Shown here: in pieces, positions 7,220 through 17,625 of the stretch | Layout of the letters: each line of letters starts with the position of its first letter | Numbering within the stretch: the first letter of the stretch is position 1 | Assembly: GCA_030754595.1 (NCBI GenBank) | Contig: JASLZZ010000099.1 | Coordinates: forward strand, 1 to 19,491 | Direction of reading: 5' to 3' | Origin: Nitrospinota bacterium | GTDB lineage: Bacteria > UBA8248 | DNA length: 19,491 bases | Position numbers and translations under genes: made by a program | The notes under the pieces: model-generated | What the model was told of the DNA's origin: nothing | Seen by the model: only the letters and a program-made list of their open reading frames with translations | The model's database searches: none

Positions 7220-8797
7220 CTAGCGCATGCCCGCCAATTCCTGGAGCAGGTGCCAGTTGCGAAGCCGCCCCTCCTTGGTCTTGAGGAGGAGCTCCGAGGG
7301 GTTGCCGTCCTTGTCGAACTGCTTGGCGAAGCGCCCCTCGCTCCGCGCGAAGGTGATGAAGTCGCACACCTCGCCCGTCTTGGCATTTTCGAACCAATCC
7401 TTGTTCGGCGAGGGGTTGCCGGTCAGGTTCATGCGCTCCTTGATGCTATCGCCCCGGCGCGGGTCGTAGGTGAACACCGGGAAGGCCCGGCTGTCGGCGG
7501 CGAGCTTGGCCTGCTGGCGGGACACATCGTCCGCGACGCCATGCTCGGGCTGGCATGTGGTGTAGACGTTCACCACCGCCGGGCCGGGGAACGCGTTCGC
7601 GTCCATGATGGCCTTGTAGAAATGATTCGTGTGGGCGCAGGTGGTCTGAGCGACGTAGACATCGCCGTGCATCATGGCGATGGTGCTGATTTCCTTGCGG
7701 TGCTCGACCTTGCCGGGAATCACCTTTCCCACCTGGCTCATCTTGGCGTCCTGGCCCATGAAGGTGCTGGTGGACGCCTGCCCGCCGGTGTTCGAGTAGA
7801 CCTGGGTGTCGAGGATGAGAACATTGATGTCGGCCCCGCTGGCGAGCATCCGCGAGAGGGACTGGAAACCGATGTCCAGCATCGCCCCGTCTCCGCCAAT
7901 CGCCCAGAGGCGTTTTTTCTCGAGGCCTTTCTGGTTCCAGCGCGCGCGCACCCCCATCGCAACGGCCGAGCTATTCTCGAACAGGCTGTTTGTCCAGGGC
8001 ACTAGATAGGGGTTGTAGGGATAGGTGCTGGTGTAGACGGTATTGCAGCCGGTCGAGGCGACGATGCCCATACCGTCGGCCCCGTACTGGAAGCCGGTGG
8101 CGGCCGTCATCATCCGCAGGGCGGTCGCCTCTCCGCAGCCCATGCAGCTTCCCGCACCGCCGACATAGAGCAAAGAGCGCTCGGTCAGCATCATGTCCGC
8201 GAGGAACTTTTCGTTGACATACTCGCTGGGCGTCTCGGGCAGGGTTTTGTAAAAATCCCAACTGCTGCGGAACTCCTCGAGGTTTTCTTTCGACTTCGGA
8301 ATCATGCCGAGAGAAGCGTGGGTGCCGCAAGCTTCCACGCACTCCCCGCAACCCTTGCACTTGGAGGGATCGACGAAGATCCCGAACATGGCCCCGTCGA
8401 GACCTTTTTTCTCGGCCTGTTTGTGGAACTTGCTCGTCTTGGAGAAGCGCGCGCGGAGAGCGTTGCGCTCTTTCTCGTCCGAAACCTGGGCCAGCCGGCT
8501 CTCGAGCTCTTTTTCGCCGATCGCAACTCCGAGGATGGCCGTATCCGGACAGTCCGTCACGCAGTCCATACACCCCACGCATTTATCGTTGTAGAAGTCC
8601 GGAAGGTCGGGGGCGATATAGCTGAAATCGCGGAACACGCCGGTTCCGGCCGGAACGAGGCTCCGCGCCACCTGAACGTCCGCCTCAAGCCCCATCTCGG
8701 CGGAGCCGTCGTTGTAGGCGCCTATGATGCGCTCGTTGAAATCTCCAATATCAAGAAAGATTTCCTCTACCGTTCCCGCGCCGCCGTTTTGGCTCAT
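7220..8797 (-). CDS. Pyruvate/2-oxoacid:ferredoxin oxidoreductase subunit: 2x[4Fe-4S] ferredoxin (delta) domain fused to a TPP-binding (beta) domain
   Basis: CVGCMDCVTDCP and CKGCGECVEAC clusters, GSCMGCGE, ASTGC, GGDGAMLDIG...YSNTGGQ and YTTCQPEHG. Confidence 0.93.
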   Translation of the reverse strand: MSQNGGAGTVEEIFLDIGDFNERIIGAYNDGSAEMGLEADVQVARSLVPAGTGVFRDFSYIAPDLPDFYNDKCVGCMDCVTDCPDTAILGVAIGEKELESRLAQVSDEKERNALRARFSKTSKFHKQAEKKGLDGAMFGIFVDPSKCKGCGECVEACGTHASLGMIPKSKENLEEFRSSWDFYKTLPETPSEYVNEKFLADMMLTERSLLYVGGAGSCMGCGEATALRMMTAATGFQYGADGMGIVASTGCNTVYTSTYPYNPYLVPWTNSLFENSSAVAMGVRARWNQKGLEKKRLWAIGGDGAMLDIGFQSLSRMLASGADINVLILDTQVYSNTGGQASTSTFMGQDAKMSQVGKVIPGKVEHRKEISTIAMMHGDVYVAQTTCAHTNHFYKAIMDANAFPGPAVVNVYTTCQPEHGVADDVSRQQAKLAADSRAFPVFTYDPRRGDSIKERMNLTGNPSPNKDWFENAKTGEVCDFITFARSEGRFAKQFDKDGNPSELLLKTKEGRLRNWHLLQELAGMR

Positions 8798-8870
8798 GAA
8801 TTCACTCCTGGAACAATCGGCCCCGCTCGAAAAGCCGAGGCCAAAGAAATTTAAAAATCCGGATCGGCGG

Positions 8871-10838
8871 TCAGCCCACCATTTCCAGCTCGCTCGCCGT
8901 TTCGATCAAATCGGCGGGAATTTCACGATTCTCGGTGTAACCGCGCCGGACACATTCCATGTTGTCCTTCACCACCTGCTCGCCGCGCCGGCCGAAATAT
9001 TTTTGAATCGATTTCTCGACGCTGGCGAAAACCTCCTCTTCGCTGATGCCTTTTTCCTTGGCGAAAGGCGTGCAACTCAAGAATATCCCGAGAAGCACGA
9101 TGCCCTGCATGCGCTGCTCGAGAGAGGGATCGCTGGCGATCTCGCGTGCGGTCTGCACGGTGTCCATATAAACGACGCGCGCATTCCGCGCCCGGAGGAT
9201 GCTCCTCGCCGATTGCGGAATGTTCCGCCACACCGCCTCGGGTTCGGTCTCGTTGGTCTGGATGAAAACCATCCCGCCATCGCTGAGACCCATCAGCGGA
9301 TTTCCGGCATGAAGGGCGTTTACATCGTTCAAGGGTATGAACTCGACCTGGTGAAGCTCGCAGTGGGTGTAAATCACATCCTCGGCGATGGTCAGGAAGT
9401 AGGTGGTGGGCAGACCCTTTTTCTCGGACCCGTATTTCGGATAGGCCTGGACGTTCAGGCCGAACGTCTCGCCCGCGATGGTGGCGATGACCTTGTTCGT
9501 CGTCACGGAGCCGTAACCGCCGACCGAGTGGCCGCGCATCGAAAAAGAGCCGGCCGGCCGGAGGTCCGGGTCTTCATAGACCTTGAGTGCGGTGGCGTGC
9601 TCGATGCCGATGGAGAAATAGCGACGGCCCGGCCCACCCTCTTTCATATTGTTCGCCACTTCGATGAGATCCCCCGGCCGCACATCGCGGCTGCCGAGAC
9701 CGGCGGAGCAGGAATAAGCCGTCGGGATTCTGTCGATATTCGGGTAGTCATCGGAGCCGACCACCGCGTCGGCGAAAGACGCCTTGATTTCCGCCGTCAG
9801 GGGGTTCGACTGGGCGCCCGGAACATCGAGACGCTCTAAAACGGTGAAGGCCTTGGTGTCCTTGAGGGCCTCGACCAGTTCCGCTCCCGGGAAGGGCCTG
9901 AACACCGTAACGTTCACCAGGCCGATTTTGACGCCCTGCTCGCGGAGGTGATCCACTGTGGCGCGGGCCGTCTCCATATAGGTGCCCATGCCGACGTAGG
10001 CGTATTCGGCGTCCTCCATCCGGTAATTATCGACCATGCCGTAGCGCCGCCCGGTGGCATCGTAGAATTCATCCATCGCGTTTTTCGCGATGGCGGGAAT
10101 CTTGTCATAATAATAGCGCTGGGCGATTTTGCCCTTCATGTAGGCGTCCTGGTTCTGGACGGTACCGCTCATGACGGGATTATCGAAATCCATCAGGTTC
10201 GGGATCTTATCTCCCGGAGGCCCGATGTAGGATTTCATGAACTCGGGTTCGAGAAACGAGAGGCTTTCGACGGTGTGGGTGGTGAGAAAACCGTCCTGGA
10301 TGTTGAGGACCGGGGTATGGCTGTCCTCGGCGACGCGGCGGGCGATGAGCGCCAGGTCGCCGGTCTCTTGGGCGGTGCGCGCGAAGAACATGCTCCACCC
10401 GCAATCGGTGACGCCCATTACGTCGTCGTGGCCCGCATGGACGTTGAGGCTGTGGGAGGTCAGGGCGCGCGCGCCGATATGGAACACGACCGGGAGACGC
10501 TTGCCGCTGATGGTATAGAGGACTTCTTTCATCAGGATCAGACCCTGACCCGACGTAAAGTTCGAAACCCGTCCGCCGGCTAGCGCGTATCCCTCGCAGG
10601 TGCTGGCGCTCGAGTGCTCGCTCTCAAGCTCGAGAAAGTACAGCTTCTCACCCCACAAATTCTCCTTCCCGTTGGCGACCTCGGCCTGATATCCCTGCCC
10701 CATCGTGGTGGAGCTGGTAATCGGGTAGGCGCACGCACCCTGGGTGATATAGGTCTCGACCCAAGTCACCGCGCCCGCGCCGTCGGAGGTCGTCTTGATG
10801 CCCGGGTAGGGGAAAACCTTGGCGTTGGATCCACTCAT
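8871..10838 (-). CDS. Pyruvate/2-oxoacid:ferredoxin oxidoreductase subunit: alpha (domains I-II) fused to gamma (domain III)
   Basis: AYPITSST, ESEHS, FTSGQGLILM, GARALTSHSLNVHAGHDD, DGFLTTH, GLGSRD, GHSVGGYGSVTTNK and YGSEKKGLPT. Confidence 0.94.
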   Translation of the reverse strand: MSGSNAKVFPYPGIKTTSDGAGAVTWVETYITQGACAYPITSSTTMGQGYQAEVANGKENLWGEKLYFLELESEHSSASTCEGYALAGGRVSNFTSGQGLILMKEVLYTISGKRLPVVFHIGARALTSHSLNVHAGHDDVMGVTDCGWSMFFARTAQETGDLALIARRVAEDSHTPVLNIQDGFLTTHTVESLSFLEPEFMKSYIGPPGDKIPNLMDFDNPVMSGTVQNQDAYMKGKIAQRYYYDKIPAIAKNAMDEFYDATGRRYGMVDNYRMEDAEYAYVGMGTYMETARATVDHLREQGVKIGLVNVTVFRPFPGAELVEALKDTKAFTVLERLDVPGAQSNPLTAEIKASFADAVVGSDDYPNIDRIPTAYSCSAGLGSRDVRPGDLIEVANNMKEGGPGRRYFSIGIEHATALKVYEDPDLRPAGSFSMRGHSVGGYGSVTTNKVIATIAGETFGLNVQAYPKYGSEKKGLPTTYFLTIAEDVIYTHCELHQVEFIPLNDVNALHAGNPLMGLSDGGMVFIQTNETEPEAVWRNIPQSARSILRARNARVVYMDTVQTAREIASDPSLEQRMQGIVLLGIFLSCTPFAKEKGISEEEVFASVEKSIQKYFGRRGEQVVKDNMECVRRGYTENREIPADLIETASELEMVG

Positions 10839-11156: not shown

Positions 11157-12701
11157 TCAAAACTTTTTTTCATCATCTCCCGGGCCATTCGGCCCCTTGT
11201 GGTCGGTCACCTCCAGACTCCCGCCAAGGCCGAAGAGCCGCTGCATTTTTTTCCTGAACGCGGGGGTGAACAATTTTTGGGCGTAGAAGCTGCCGGCCGC
11301 CCTCTTGTTCACCTGGGCCAGCGTCGGATAAACGTGAATCGTCTCCACCACTTCCTTGACGTGGAGCCTCTTGCGGACAGCCAGGGCGAATTCGGGGAGA
11401 ATTTCTCCGGCGGCGGAGCACACCAGGTCGGCTCCCAGGAACCTGCCCCTCGAATCACACACCACCTTGCAGAACCCCGACGTCTCTCCCTCCAGGATGG
11501 CGCGATCAACCCGGTCCATCGGAAAGCGAAGCACATGAATCTCTCCCAGCGCCTCCCTCGCCTCGGCCTCCGTCATTCCCACATGGGCCGCCTCCGTGCT
11601 CGTGTAAATCGCCCATGGGACAGCGTGATAGGAAGCTTTTTTCTTGAGAAACGGAACCGGTATCCCTAACGGCTCGCTGAAAAGCATATTCCGGAGCGCT
11701 ATGCCCGCTTCATACTCCGCGACATGGGTGAACTGGTAGGCGCCGCGCACGTCCCCCACCGCGTAAATTTTAGGGTTCGAGGTGCGGAGCCACTCGTCCG
11801 TCCGCACCCTGCGCGGGGTGCACTCCACACCGGCATCGGCGAGGCCGAGGCCGTCCAGGTTCGGCTTTCGCCCCACGGCCACCAGGAGCGCATCGCAGGA
11901 AAACGACCGCGGCCCCCCGGGGTTTTCGGCCTGCCCCCCGGGGGCCTCCGCGTGAATGACGATTTCGTCCCCGCGCTTTTCCACTTTTGACACCCTCACC
12001 TCGAAGTGAAGACGAAGACCGCTCTCCTCAAGCGCCCTCCGGAGGACGTCGGCCATCTCGTGGTCGAGCCGGGGCAGGAGCTTGGGCATCATCTCCAGGA
12101 CTTCCATCTCGGTCCAGAGGTGGTGGAACGCCTGGGCCAGTTCGAGACCGATCGGCCCCCCGCCGAGGACCGCCATCCGCCGAGGCTGCGCCTCGAGATC
12201 GAATACGGTCTCGTTCGTGAGAAAGGGAACCTCCGACAGCCCGGCCACCTCGGGCACGAGGGGCGAGCTTCCGGTCACCAGCAAAAACCGCCGCGCCCGA
12301 ATCCGCCTGCCTCCGACCTCGAACAGGTCCGGCCCCGTGAAGCGGCCCTCGCCGAAGATGACCTCGATGCCCATCGCCTCGAATCGGGCGGGGTCGTCGT
12401 GCTCGCCGATATGGGCCTGGACTTCCTTCATCCGCCGCATCACCCGGGGAAAGTCCACCCGCACCTCGCCGACCTCGATTCCGAACTCGCTCATGCGCCG
12501 GGCCCCGGCGGCCATCCGCGCGGCATGAATGAGCCCTTTTGAAGGAACGCAGCCTTAATTCAGGCAATCGCCGCCCAGCTCTCCGCGCTCGACAAGGGCC
12601 ATCCTCGCGCCCAACTGAGCCGCCCCGTAGGCAGCCACCAAACCGCCCACTCCGCCGCCGATACAAAGGAGATCGAATCTTTCTTCATGCTCGGCGGTCA
12701 T
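11157..12701 (-). pseudogene. Lpd/MerA-like FAD-dependent pyridine nucleotide-disulfide oxidoreductase interrupted by an in-frame TAA (12555-12557)
   Basis: From ATG 12701 the frame reads [20 protein letters not shown]...GGDCLN*GCVPSKGLIHAARM and continues in the same frame as ORF 11157..12515 (GGGPIGLE, GRKPN, AVGDV, HVYPTL). There is no C-terminal Cys-Cys pair, so it is not MerA. Confidence 0.88.
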
Positions 12702-14354: not shown

Positions 14355-15365
14355 TCAGGAGAAATCCGTCTCCCACAATCGTTTCAGCTTTTGCATGGAT
14401 TCCCCCGAAATCATCCCGGCGCCCGAGCACGAAACCGCCTCCTCGAGTTGGCCGGAACCCGAGAACCCCACCAAAACGGTGGACACTCCCTCCTTCATGA
14501 GAGCGAACCGAATCGCGGCCTGGGCGAGGGTGTATCCCCCCTCATCGGCGAGCCAGCTCAGCTTCCCCGCCCGCTCAACGTCCCTGGCGTACTCCGAGCC
14601 GAGCGAGAGCACCGGCGGGGCCTCGTCCAAAAATCCCAGGAGCCCGGGCTCCGCCGTCAATGCGCCCAGGGCCAGGACGCGTATCACCAACACCCCCATC
14701 CCCTCATCCACGGCGCGATCGAGCAACCCCCCGTAGTCCAGGGCGCCGAACGACTCGGGGACCGGATAGCCACTGCTGGGGTTCAGTAAATTGAAATAGG
14801 TTTGCACGGTGTGGAACTCGCCGCTTTCAACCAGACCTGAAAGCGCCTTGGGATCTCCGATGCCGGTGAACCCGAAAAAGCCCACCTTCCCCCGCGCCCT
14901 CAACTCCTTAAAACCCGCCAAAACCCCTCCGGGGCCGAATACGTCCCCCTCGTCAAGGGCCACCCCGACCGGCCATTTTCCACCCGGCGCAATGTAGTTG
15001 TGTATCTGAATCAGGTCCACCGAGGTGCGCCCGAGCCGATCGAGACTTCTCTCCACGGAGGCGATCACCGCACCCTTTAGGTCCGAGAGGTCATCCGGCC
15101 CGAGCCGTATCTTCGTGGACAAACTCACCCCGGCCTCGACCCCGGCCCCGGCCGCCTTGAGGGCCCGGCCCAGGTTGGCCTCGGATTTCCCGTTCCCGTA
15201 GCCCATCGCCGTATCGAAGAACGTGACCCCCAGATCGAGGGCGCCCTTCACCGCGCGAAGCTGGCCCTCATGGTCATCGCTCACCATGAGCCGGCTGATG
15301 CCCCCTGTCCCGAAGCCAATCTCGGAGACGCGGATTCCTGTCCTCCCCAATGAGCGATACTGCAT
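14355..15365 (-). CDS. Aldo/keto reductase
   Basis: Start ATG 15365 (GGGAGA upstream): MQYRSLGRTGIRVSEIGFG, FFDTAMGYG, STKI and SLDRLGRTSVDLIQIH, giving the D/Y/K/H catalytic tetrad. Confidence 0.93.
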   Translation of the reverse strand: MQYRSLGRTGIRVSEIGFGTGGISRLMVSDDHEGQLRAVKGALDLGVTFFDTAMGYGNGKSEANLGRALKAAGAGVEAGVSLSTKIRLGPDDLSDLKGAVIASVERSLDRLGRTSVDLIQIHNYIAPGGKWPVGVALDEGDVFGPGGVLAGFKELRARGKVGFFGFTGIGDPKALSGLVESGEFHTVQTYFNLLNPSSGYPVPESFGALDYGGLLDRAVDEGMGVLVIRVLALGALTAEPGLLGFLDEAPPVLSLGSEYARDVERAGKLSWLADEGGYTLAQAAIRFALMKEGVSTVLVGFSGSGQLEEAVSCSGAGMISGESMQKLKRLWETDFS

Positions 15366-15682
15366 CGGCACAATCTCCCGATAAAGATAATTATTGGCGG
15401 CCGGTCGATTACACAAAACCGCCGGCCGAATTCAAAACTCCAAACCTCCGCAGGAGCAAAGGGAGGCATTTTATCGATTGCGCCGGGGAGGATAAAGGCG
15501 CCGGTCCATGCTAACGCCCAGAATGCCTCCGGTGTGGATTTCCACTAGTTTTGATATGCTGGCCCGAGACGCCCATGAAATTAACCGCCGGACGGGAAAC
15601 CCTCCTTTTCGAACGCGACTTTCGAACGTGATTCCCGGATCGGCGGCCCGCGATTCCACCCCCCCCCCACAGGAGCCAGACG

Positions 15683-16432
15683 ATGGAGCCCGTCAAGGTT
15701 TATACACGGCACGGCTGATACACCTGTGCGAGAACGAGGGAGTTTCTCTCGTCGAACGGTATTGAAGTCATCAACCGCGACTGCACAAACGACCCCGAGG
15801 CGATGGCCGAGCTAAAGGCGCTGGGTGTGAAGTCCCTGCCCGTCTCCGTGCGCGGGGAGGATGTCGTCGTCGGCTATAACGTCTCAGACCTGTGCGAAAC
15901 CTTCGGCATCGACGCAGGATCCAGCGGCCCGATGCGTCCCGAGAAAATGATGGAAATGTACCGCCTCGTTTTCGGCGGCCTAAGGCACGCCGTGAACCAG
16001 CTCTCGCCCGGGCAACTCGACTGGATCTCCCCGGGCCGGCCCCGCTCGATGCGCCAGCTTCTTTGGCACAGCTTCGAGCGGCCCGTCCTCGGCATCGAGG
16101 CGCACGACGGCGGCGAGTACTCCCGCGATATGGTGCGGCGCTACGAGGAACTCGCGCAGAACTACCGCACCGGCGAGGAGATTTGCGCCTACGGGGCCCG
16201 CATCGAGGCCGAGCTCGCCGAATTTCTCGCGGAGGGCGATAAGCTCGCCAAAAAGGTGAAAAGCTACATGGGGCCGATCACCGTCCACGAGCTACTGGAG
16301 TTGGCCCTGGGCCATGCGTTCCAGCATCTCCGGCAGGCCTATCACTACATGCCGATGATGGGCGTCGAGCCGGACCGCCCCCTCGACCCGAAGTCGTACG
16401 AAGAGGTACCCGTTCCCGAGGAGTTATTCTAA
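15683..16432 (+). CDS. Probable selenoprotein: NrdH/glutaredoxin-like domain (UxxC) fused to a DinB-like domain, 249 aa
   Basis: AGGAG SD at 15671-15675 and ATG 15683 give MEPVKVYTRHG-U(TGA 15716-15718)-YTCARTREFLSSNGIEVINRDCTNDPEAMAELKALGVKSLPV...VGY, in frame with ORF 15803..16432. The C-terminal part has RSMRQLLWH...LGHAFQHLRQ (DinB-type His triad). Confidence 0.88.
15719..15761 (+). promoter_or_regulatory. Candidate bacterial SECIS element
   Basis: Upper stem ACGAGGGA (15734-15741), loop GUU, then UCUCUCGU (15745-15752): 8 bp with one G-U pair. The loop starts with GU, 23 nt after the UGA. An imperfect lower stem is possible (CC/GG, GU/AC, CG/CG). Confidence 0.72.
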
Positions 16433-16502: not shown

Positions 16503-17492
16503 TCAGCGGGTGCGCCGCTTGTCCCGCTTTTCCTCGTACATCTTGAAGTCCGCCTCGTCGAGCAGTTTGTCGAGCGAGGGCGTGTTGCCGGGGGAGTAGT
16601 GCGCCACGCCGATGCTGAAGGAGATTTTTATGTCCGGGCGCTTGCGTTCGTTGTGAGCGCTGAGGTTTTTCCGGAGACGCTCGGCGATTCTATCGGCGCT
16701 GTCGGTCCTGTCGGCGCTGTCGAAGGCGAGAATCGTGAACTCATCTCCCGCGTAGCGGCCGATGATGTCCGGGCGGCGCACCGTCTTTCGAAGAATCGCA
16801 CCTGTTTCGATCAGGGCCTGATCGCCTTCGAGGTGGCCGAATTCGTCGTTGATCCATTTGAGGCCGTCGAGGTCCAGAAAGAAAAGGGACATCCCCCAAC
16901 CCTGACGCTGGGCGAGGGTCAACTGCCGGTTGGCGGCTTCGACGAACCCTCTCCGGTTGAACAGACCCGTCAAAGGGTCCACATCCGAGAGGGCCCGAAG
17001 CTGCGCCTCCATGTTGGCCCGCTCGGTAATATCGTGGATGGAGACGATGTAAATTTTCTCTCGGCCAAGTTTCGCTTCCACCGCACGAATCTCGGCCACC
17101 CGATCCCGCCGGCCGGTCTTCGCGAGGGTCGCTTCCTGGGGACGCTGGGGATCGACCACATAGTGAAACTTTTGGCCGATCATCTTTCCACCCCTGGATT
17201 TCAAGAACTTCTCGGCGGCGGAATTGAGATAGCGAATCGTCCCGTCTCTATCGACGGCGACGATTCCATCCGGCGAGTTCCTCACAAGGATTTCGCCCAA
17301 GCCGTCCAGGTCCGGTTTCGAGCCCTTGGAGGCGGGCTTCCCGCCAGACCGTTTCGCCTTAACCTTCGCCTTCAGGGTTTTTTTCCGAGAGACGGTTTTC
17401 TTCTTTTTCGCGGCGGTCTTTTTTTTCGCGGCAGATTTCTTGGCAGTGGATTTCTTGGCGGTGGATTTTTTCTTCGCTACAGCCCTAACCAT
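16503..17492 (-). CDS. Diguanylate cyclase (PAS + GGDEF) with a Lys/Ala-rich histone-H1-like N-terminal extension
   Basis: PDGIVAVDRDGTIRYLN (PAS), DPLTGLFNRR, FLDLDGLKWINDEFGHLEGD, RRPDIIGRYAGDEF and ADFKMYEEK. The start is uncertain (ATG 17492 or 17501). Confidence 0.9.
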   Translation of the reverse strand: MVRAVAKKKSTAKKSTAKKSAAKKKTAAKKKKTVSRKKTLKAKVKAKRSGGKPASKGSKPDLDGLGEILVRNSPDGIVAVDRDGTIRYLNSAAEKFLKSRGGKMIGQKFHYVVDPQRPQEATLAKTGRRDRVAEIRAVEAKLGREKIYIVSIHDITERANMEAQLRALSDVDPLTGLFNRRGFVEAANRQLTLAQRQGWGMSLFFLDLDGLKWINDEFGHLEGDQALIETGAILRKTVRRPDIIGRYAGDEFTILAFDSADRTDSADRIAERLRKNLSAHNERKRPDIKISFSIGVAHYSPGNTPSLDKLLDEADFKMYEEKRDKRRTR

Positions 17493-17625
17493 TGACTCCA
17501 TTCCCGACTTGACCGGACGAAAACCGAAGACGCCTTGGCAACAAGCGCCAGGATAACCGTTCACTCACCCTTGTCCGAAGGCGGTCGGATGAACCGAGAA
17601 TCTATAAACCCGGGCGGGCTCAAAC

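Follow-up and report, generated by a model that had tools for sequence, protein, structure and literature searches.

A glutaredoxin–DinB fusion with a conserved in-frame TGA as a probable selenoprotein family of Nitrospinaceae and other bacteria

Selenocysteine (Sec)-containing forms of glutaredoxin (Grx; PF00462, UxxC), such as the Clostridium oremlandii Grx of Kim et al. 2011, feature in a recent survey of selenoprotein families (PMC13188914). Within the DinB family, YfiT/BstA and Mst are described as thiol S-transferases, which join electrophiles to bacillithiol or mycothiol (PMC4360819). Here we report on a gene that appears to unite both folds in one chain. It lies on a 19,491-nt stretch of DNA from a Nitrospinota bacterium (contig JASLZZ010000099.1 of assembly GCA_030754595.1; hereafter, the window). 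Identity and architecture taken jointly, positions 15683–16432 (+ strand) very probably hold a single gene for a 249-residue selenoprotein composed of an NrdH/Grx and a DinB domain. That the gene encodes a real selenoprotein, whatever its reaction, we regard as almost certain from comparative sequence evidence.

One conserved in-frame TGA

Residue and codon numbers refer throughout to the 249-codon read-through frame from ATG 15683 on the + strand. Translation of this frame gives MEPVKVYTRHG-U-YT-C-ARTREFLSSNGI...SLPV...VVVGY, in which a sole in-frame TGA (codon 12; 15716–15718, +) occupies position one of a U-Y-T-C motif and is predicted to specify Sec12. The frame is otherwise open to the TAA at 16430–16432, and full-length matches with one TGA each, found in 38 genomes, support the extent of the coding sequence (15683–16432, +). 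The TGT at 15725–15727 (+) encodes Cys15, which we presume to be the resolving residue of the UxxC. Direct reading of the sequence places a Shine-Dalgarno GGAG at 15672–15675 (+), 7 nt 5’ of the ATG; GGAG or GGGAG recurs at equal spacing in all 29 loci displayed, and GGAG or AGAG in five further displayed loci. Just 5’ of this element is a ten-C run (15660–15669) that its nearest relatives do not share, L025 and L026 having mixed sequence there.

The table-11 open reading frame, by comparison, covers only 15803–16432 (209 aa) and begins at the ATG of Met41 (15803–15805, +), which we do not consider the real start. The first-pass annotation of this DNA, made from the letters alone, had drawn attention to the Shine-Dalgarno sequence and the ATG located 40 codons before the called frame and in phase with it, to the single TGA where the attacking Cys of a CxxC belongs, to the surrounding Grx motifs, and to the truncated product that standard callers would report. 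All of these points were borne out, the last by database entries of 209 aa with PF12867 as their only domain.

To what extent the TGA is conserved was assessed by a profile search of 51 genomes of the phylum, 42 of which belong to the window’s family—the Nitrospinaceae, as indicated by the names on close database relatives. The search yielded 39 whole copies, every one of them from that family and together spread over 38 of its 42 genomes, with exactly one TGA each and a Cys codon at the Sec site in none. In one further genome, the gene is divided between two contig ends and its 5’ piece carries the TGA. Alignment of 34 orthologues (49–95% identity) placed a TGA at codon 12 in 34/34, and TGA and frame were retained down to ~30% identity. 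Because the same frame with the same single TGA codon recurs in 39/39 copies, it is not a product of chance. On the 5’ side of the TGA, codons 2–11 have fixed residues and free synonymous sites, with four codons in use for Gly11, four for Thr8, and five for Arg9; synonymous variation also extends 3’ of the TGA.

The stretch is present in marine and seawater metagenomes from 11 studies. Contigs of three independent studies span the TGA and have no listed difference there, so the codon is not a sequencing error. The TGC or TGT that the first-pass annotation had proposed to look for in reads or relatives thus appeared neither in these contigs nor in the 39 copies from the phylum. Two genomes of the window’s genus hold a second paralogue of the gene, 50% identical (L058, at G004:C20:672–1436, and L059, at the contig end of G002:C349); L058, the whole copy, carries HGUFSC, and no copy of this paralogue was found in the window’s genome with this query.

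The genome itself (138 contigs, 96.9% complete) contains each of the sel genes that had been named as a prerequisite. We found selA (552 bits) and, on the same contig, selB (364 bits); selD (345 bits), which has an in-frame TGA of its own (peptide GGUGSK); and a tRNA-Sec whose anticodon is TCA (73.6 bits). All score above curated cut-offs. Judged by this gene content, the organism uses selenocysteine. TGA serves as an ordinary stop in selD, in a neighbouring flavoprotein gene, and in 3/34 orthologues of the Sec gene, and the codon is therefore not reassigned in this code. The selD gene (G000:C16, L011:1480–2700) ends at its second TGA, which makes one codon both Sec and stop within a single gene. 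The Grx domain is also matched, at E values of 1e-10 to 1e-15, by short glutaredoxin-like frames (~65–100 aa) that contain one or two TGA codons in phase (for example G000:C94:2371–2613). Almost all genomes of the phylum have similar frames, which probably represent stand-alone Grx-like or Uxx-star selenoproteins.

Natural Cys forms and a hairpin downstream of the TGA

We searched 1.84 billion representatives exhaustively with HMMER and obtained 623 matches at E values up to 0.001. Site residues were counted in the best 150 of these 623 matches, of which 69 besides the query cover the Sec site: 64 have Cys, three have Trp, one has Ser (an SxxS variant), and one has a gap. Cys15 is conserved in 34/34 orthologues and in 68/69 covering homologues, the lone exception being the SxxS variant (P0172). 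The Cys forms contain a CxxC, mostly WQPGC[ST]SC, and have received automatic names such as ‘DinB family protein’, ‘glutaredoxin domain-containing protein’, and ‘NrdH-redoxin family protein’; one JGI entry is called ‘uncharacterized damage-inducible protein DinB/glutaredoxin’. Among the same best 150, 82 representatives begin past the Sec site, mostly at query positions 16–50, within the Grx fold.

We scanned metagenomes with eight late-starting database entries as seeds and obtained 40 loci. In 27/27 loci that match from the query start and have upstream DNA, an in-frame TGA stood at the same position, within motifs such as YYRPGUFTC, YFKSGUSAC, YARKGUATC, and similar ones. A scan seeded with Cys forms, restricted to one genome per species, gave 80 loci, mostly from Burkholderiales, Paraburkholderia, Caballeronia, and Alphaproteobacteria. 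Of these proteobacterial loci, 72 have Cys and eight have TGA; the eight Sec forms (L066, L067, L093, L095, L098, L104, L131, and L132; FWQPGUSSC and FWQPHUTSC) sit inside an otherwise Cys-type clade. Sec forms were also recovered from relatives named as Chloroflexota and NC10, besides Pseudomonadota. The homologue comparison, set beforehand as a test that could refute the prediction, gave Cys in 64/69 representatives and 72/80 proteobacterial loci, and the Cys-type Grx–DinB fusions that the first-pass annotation had mentioned do exist, as Pseudomonadota proteins of the same architecture.

A quick FastTree phylogeny was built from 182 proteins, 68 of them Sec and 114 Cys forms; its long branches leave details unsure. 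On this tree, the Sec/Cys state required at least three changes, as compared to a mean of 55 with shuffled labels. An all-Sec clade of 61 rows, which contains the Nitrospinaceae and metagenomic sequences, had a local support of 97. Taken as a whole, these proteins constitute a two-domain family with natural Cys and predicted Sec forms in several phyla.

Bacterial Sec insertion sequence (bSECIS) hairpins have, according to the constraints quoted in PMC13188914, a loop of 3–9 nt with a G in the first two loop positions, a stem of 4–16 bp, a spacing of 16–37 nt from the UGA, and a minimum free energy of ≤ −7.5 kcal/mol. The window contains a bSECIS-like hairpin at 15734–15752 (+; ACGAGGGAG-UUU-CUCUCGU) that lies within all four constraints as quoted there, given its apical loop GUU (15742–15744), 8-bp stem, UGA-to-loop distance of 23 nt, and energy of −8.7 kcal/mol. 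Codons within the hairpin were devoid of synonymous variation (ACG in 30/30 and GAG in 34/34 orthologues). An RNAalifold consensus additionally gave weak indication of a possible lower stem at 15724–15759 (+; 15724–15727 with 15756–15759), whose pair at columns 15–44 is UA in 12, CG in 12, UG in two, and broken in eight sequences.

Across 49 Sec-form sequences, distant ones included, 95.9% of cells were paired, and the pair at alignment columns 26–36 was AU in 28, GC in 21, and broken in none. The covariation score of this set was matched by 0/500 shuffles and exceeded every slid control; the signal is strong because the distant Sec forms were added. When folded as a whole, the region 15710–15790 was no better than shuffles (z = −0.59). 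What carries the hairpin signal is the short stem and its conservation, not bulk folding energy.

As a control for the hairpin we used the Cys forms, namely 72 of the 80 proteobacterial loci, the other eight being Sec forms. The hairpin was absent from 72/72 Cys-form genes, despite nearly the same peptide (T-K/R-E-F-L). Cys forms formed a mean of 3.0 of the eight pairs (maximum 6) and Sec forms a mean of 7.6, with local folding energies of −2.8 versus −9.6 kcal/mol. We consider this control decisive for the predicted specificity of the hairpin to Sec forms. The proteobacterial Sec forms possess downstream hairpins of shapes unlike the Nitrospinaceae one, which is consistent with separate origins and suggests separate Cys-to-Sec or Sec-to-Cys switches.

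Might the TGA be a plain stop, with the true gene being a 209-aa DinB protein from ATG 15803 and the upstream part a leader or the remnant of a decayed glutaredoxin? This is the product of the gene callers, entries of precisely that length and with PF12867 only are on record, and the 82 late-starting representatives would fit such a gene. However, the 209-aa product would begin within the Grx fold, past its first strand and helix, at a Met41 that is replaced by Gln in 21/34 orthologues. Codons 1–40 evolve under protein-level selection, the TGA and its frame persist to ~30% identity, and the late-starting database entries trace to loci with an upstream TGA (27/27); we hold a plain stop to be highly improbable. 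The same grade applies to a UGA that is read through but yields Trp or Cys, whether through near-cognate suppression or through a local change of the code. Trp at the Sec position, which the first-pass annotation had listed as a contrary sign, does occur in three full-length database proteins (P0016, P0061, and P0152). Yet, the N-termini of these three entries match clades whose genomic copies carry TGA, and for this reason the Trp entries are most likely the product of a gene caller reading TGA as Trp; the genomes nearest to them likewise carry TGA. If Trp stood where CxxC has its attacking residue, redox chemistry would be lost, and Cys homologues are the rule. Moreover, the same genomes use TGA as an ordinary stop, the Sec machinery is complete, and a Sec-form-specific hairpin is found at SECIS distance. 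Least credible of all is a sequencing error or recent nonsense mutation of this assembly alone. The window does hold one such case in another gene (TAA 12555–12557, absent in 5/5 relatives), but for the Sec gene this explanation is ruled out by TGA in 39/39 whole copies and in the contigs of three independent studies.

Besides the Trp entries, several observations weigh against Sec decoding of this gene. Within Nitrospinaceae only, where 95.1% of cells were paired, covariation of the hairpin was modest: in two pairs both partners had changed, a count that 48/500 shuffles attained. An Rfam scan of 15600–15900 at E values up to 10 gave just two chance matches (a lncRNA and a snoRNA), whether Rfam includes bacterial SECIS elements having been left unchecked. 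A promoter scan found no sigma-70-like site. Finally, there is only weak evidence that the upstream part is transcribed: one 154-nt contig from a metatranscriptome library spans 15697–15847, across both the TGA and ATG 15803, with two differences from the window, and RNA libraries can contain DNA.

Domains, proposed chemistry and gene neighbourhood

The N-terminal third of the protein is an NrdH/YruB-like Grx domain (~residues 4–75; 15692–15907, +). Pfam Glutaredoxin (PF00462) matched residues 4–54 with 40.2 bits (cut-off 22.9), and the cis-Pro of LPV (P53) is nearly invariant in a 61-sequence alignment. The DinB/YfiT-like helical-bundle domain follows at ~residues 86–230 (15938–16372, +), with Pfam DinB_2 (PF12867) matching residues 100–219 at 29.8 bits (cut-off 24.8). 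In the 61 sequences, His129 (16067–16069, +) and His211 are nearly invariant and His215 is invariant (His211-x3-His215, 16313–16327, +). We take these residues to be the H...HxxxH metal triad of the DinB/YfiT fold, with one His on an early helix and HxxxH on the last long helix; metal binding by the triad is predicted from the fold and from triad conservation.

AlphaFold2 (AF2), run on a 61-row alignment with Cys in place of Sec, returned a model with a strand at residues 4–8 and a helix at 13–24. Because its pLDDT was 95.1 and its pTM 0.89, the model suggests that the two domains are packed in a fixed arrangement. Foldseek matched the N-terminal domain best to cGrx1 (7c10; 36% identity, target-normalised TM 0.90–0.91) and also to NrdH-redoxins, and the C-terminal domain to DR0053 (6iz2; target-normalised TM 0.82), 2p1a (0.75–0.76), YfiT (1rxq; 0.66), and 8f5v, a mycothiol S-transferase of M. 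tuberculosis with Zn and mycothiol; the probability was 1.00 for 1rxq, 8f5v, and 6iz2. Both folds and the His triad thus agree with what the first-pass annotation had proposed. No NCBIfam 20.0 model reached its cut-off—the YruB family (TIGR02196) scored 48.2 bits against 88.55, NrdH-redoxin (TIGR02194) 40.3 against 85.75, Uxx-star (NF041212) 42.6 against 66, and Uxx-star families 1–3 lower still—and none matched the DinB part. Likewise, Pfam domains of glutathione S-transferases (GSTs) gave no match at E values up to 1.

Based on this architecture, we propose the following mechanism. SelB and Sec-tRNA(Sec) would bind the hairpin at 15734–15752, and the ribosome would decode the UGA at 15716–15718 as selenocysteine. 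A metal site formed by His129, His211, and His215 would bind and polarise a small substrate (an electrophile, or else a conjugate linked through S or Se) for attack by the Sec12 selenolate as the nucleophile. Cys15 would then resolve the adduct, leaving a selenenylsulfide from which a disulfide reductase system would regenerate the reduced form. The enzyme would, in other words, be a single-chain analogue of DinB-family thiol S-transferases, in which the selenol of the protein itself would stand in for the low-molecular-weight thiol or assist it.

That the protein is specifically a thiol or selenol transferase or reductase working at the DinB metal site, by a chemistry that we infer, is a tentative proposal, and so is the functional link between a selenol redox centre and a thiol-transferase-like domain that the first-pass annotation had put forward. 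A bolder version, which we think rather unlikely, has Sec12 act directly at, or ligate, the His3-bound DinB metal, so that Grx and DinB together would make a selenolate–metal active site of a GST-like detoxifying or reducing enzyme. To our knowledge, no selenolate–metal active site of such a kind has been described for any selenoenzyme. If Sec12 does work at the metal, these genes would constitute a major selenoprotein family that annotation systematically misses. The family occurs in almost all marine nitrite-oxidising Nitrospinaceae and is common among bacteria of soil and groundwater, and Sec and Cys would have been exchanged within it at least three times.

The main rival to direct attack by Sec12, itself doubtful in our estimation, is a selenoprotein whose Sec-Grx domain is a mere electron donor or acceptor, NrdH-like and reduced by a flavoprotein of the thioredoxin reductase type. 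In a variant of this relay, the domain would recycle a low-molecular-weight thiol conjugate or mixed disulfide from the DinB site, or would de-thiolate proteins, without attacking the substrate. Fused redoxin domains usually are the reductants of their partner domain, and the Grx domain has its best scores against NrdH/YruB models and NrdH/cGrx structures. A flavoprotein disulfide reductase is encoded 3 kb upstream in the window, and in 2/34 related loci (L033 and L052) its gene is directly adjacent and divergent to the Sec gene. Those two are the only such cases, however; the window copy has a premature TAA, and the DinB domain offers no conserved Cys to reduce. Nothing here separates the relay from direct attack by Sec12.

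Direct attack by Sec12, together with the transferase function built on it, also faces difficulties of its own. Alignments of Sec and Cys forms revealed no conserved Cys in the DinB domain. Glutathione binding is doubtful because the Grx domain is NrdH-like, with a VGYN/VGFN that we take to be the NrdH motif. Besides, the Sec gene stands alone between opposite-strand genes, without an informative operon partner in this genome.

These uninformative neighbours encode an aldo/keto reductase (14355–15416, −) and a PAS-GGDEF protein (16503–17564, −). The upstream flavoprotein disulfide reductase (11157–12701, −) is MerA/Lpd-like, scoring 481 bits with its best NCBIfam model, NF004991, below cut-off, and its in-frame TAA (12555–12557) falls inside the redox motif GGDCLN-stop-GCVPSK. 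Orthologues are uninterrupted in 5/5 related genomes, with TAC (Tyr) in four and TTT (Phe) in one; we read the TAA as a nonsense mutation or assembly error of this genome, not as recoding. Farther away, two adjoining genes (7220–10838, −) encode a pyruvate/2-oxoacid:ferredoxin oxidoreductase with POR_N, PFOR_II, POR, TPP-binding, and 4Fe-4S domains. A terminator scan detected one terminator-like site, on the minus strand within the gene, with no excess over chance.

In 27/34 Nitrospinaceae loci (L030–L052 and L054–L057), an M20 amidase of the hydantoinase/carbamoylase family (TIGR01879; 340 bits, cut-off 204) starts 30–50 nt downstream on the same strand and looks like an operon partner. The amidase also scored 362 bits with the model for ErtE of ergothioneine catabolism, under that model’s cut-off. 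The pairing is absent in the window’s genus, and the nearest match in this genome (67% identity) is on another contig (G000:C84:45174–46427). Beside Cys-form loci, we noted neighbour clusters whose representative frames match GntR/FCD, an OYE-type reductase, a Zn-ADH, and an FAA hydrolase, each at 5 to 11 of the 80 loci, too small a number to build on. Stop-to-stop clustering of open reading frames over 109 loci returned mostly spurious frames. As far as these comparisons go, the gene neighbourhood does not fix a substrate.

Comparison with known systems

Across public databases, gene calls reduce the family to a truncated ‘DinB family protein’ of ~190–236 aa. This truncation hides the redox-active third, with the predicted selenocysteine. 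Recognising the full-length gene adds a conserved candidate selenoprotein to globally important marine nitrite oxidisers. DinB-fold thiol transferases are understood in users of bacillithiol and mycothiol, and a version with a built-in selenol/thiol pair would extend the question to other bacteria. The family, which exists in nature in both Sec and Cys forms, further provides a direct system for studying the role of the DinB metal site and the advantage of Sec over Cys.

A full-text literature search retrieved no description of a Grx–DinB selenoprotein or of a Nitrospina selenoprotein of this kind, nor any work on the Cys-type Grx–DinB proteins. Table 1 of the 2026 review (PMC13188914), with its 119 families, holds no DinB entry and just the stand-alone ‘Glutaredoxin (Grx) PF00462 UxxC’. 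Apart from that table, members of the family may have been listed before, for instance under ‘Grx’ in BSepDB (111 families) or by homology pipelines.

The known selenoprotein Grx, as represented in that review, resembles the protein described here in its thioredoxin fold, in having Sec at position one of UxxC, and in a SECIS hairpin directly 3’ of the UGA; it differs in being small and stand-alone, whereas here Grx forms the N-terminal third of a 249-aa DinB fusion. The Uxx-star glutaredoxin-like selenoproteins, too, are much shorter (~70 aa, as opposed to 249 aa with Sec near the N-terminus). With YfiT/BstA of B. subtilis and the mycobacterial Mst, the C-terminal domain shares the helical-bundle fold and the conserved H...HxxxH triad at an identity of 12–21%, and its predicted likeness to thiol S-transferases extends to fold and triad. 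Those enzymes are single-domain proteins that employ a free low-molecular-weight thiol, in contrast to a selenol/thiol pair of the protein’s own on a fused Grx domain. Omega-class GSTs with a catalytic Cys likewise place a thioredoxin-fold nucleophile domain before an all-helical one; this is an analogy only, as the helical domains are not homologous and whole-protein Foldseek comparison gave a TM of ~0.3 and an rmsd of 12–16 Å.

True homologues of the Sec protein are the Cys-type Grx–DinB fusions in Pseudomonadota (Paraburkholderia, Caballeronia, Burkholderiales, and others), which share its architecture, length, and His triad at 22–31% identity. They have CxxC in place of UxxC, WQPGC(S/T)SC as compared to TRHGUYTC, and no hairpin past the codon. 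UxxC proteins of the thioredoxin fold are the commonest kind of selenoprotein, and it is to these that the Grx–DinB form adds.

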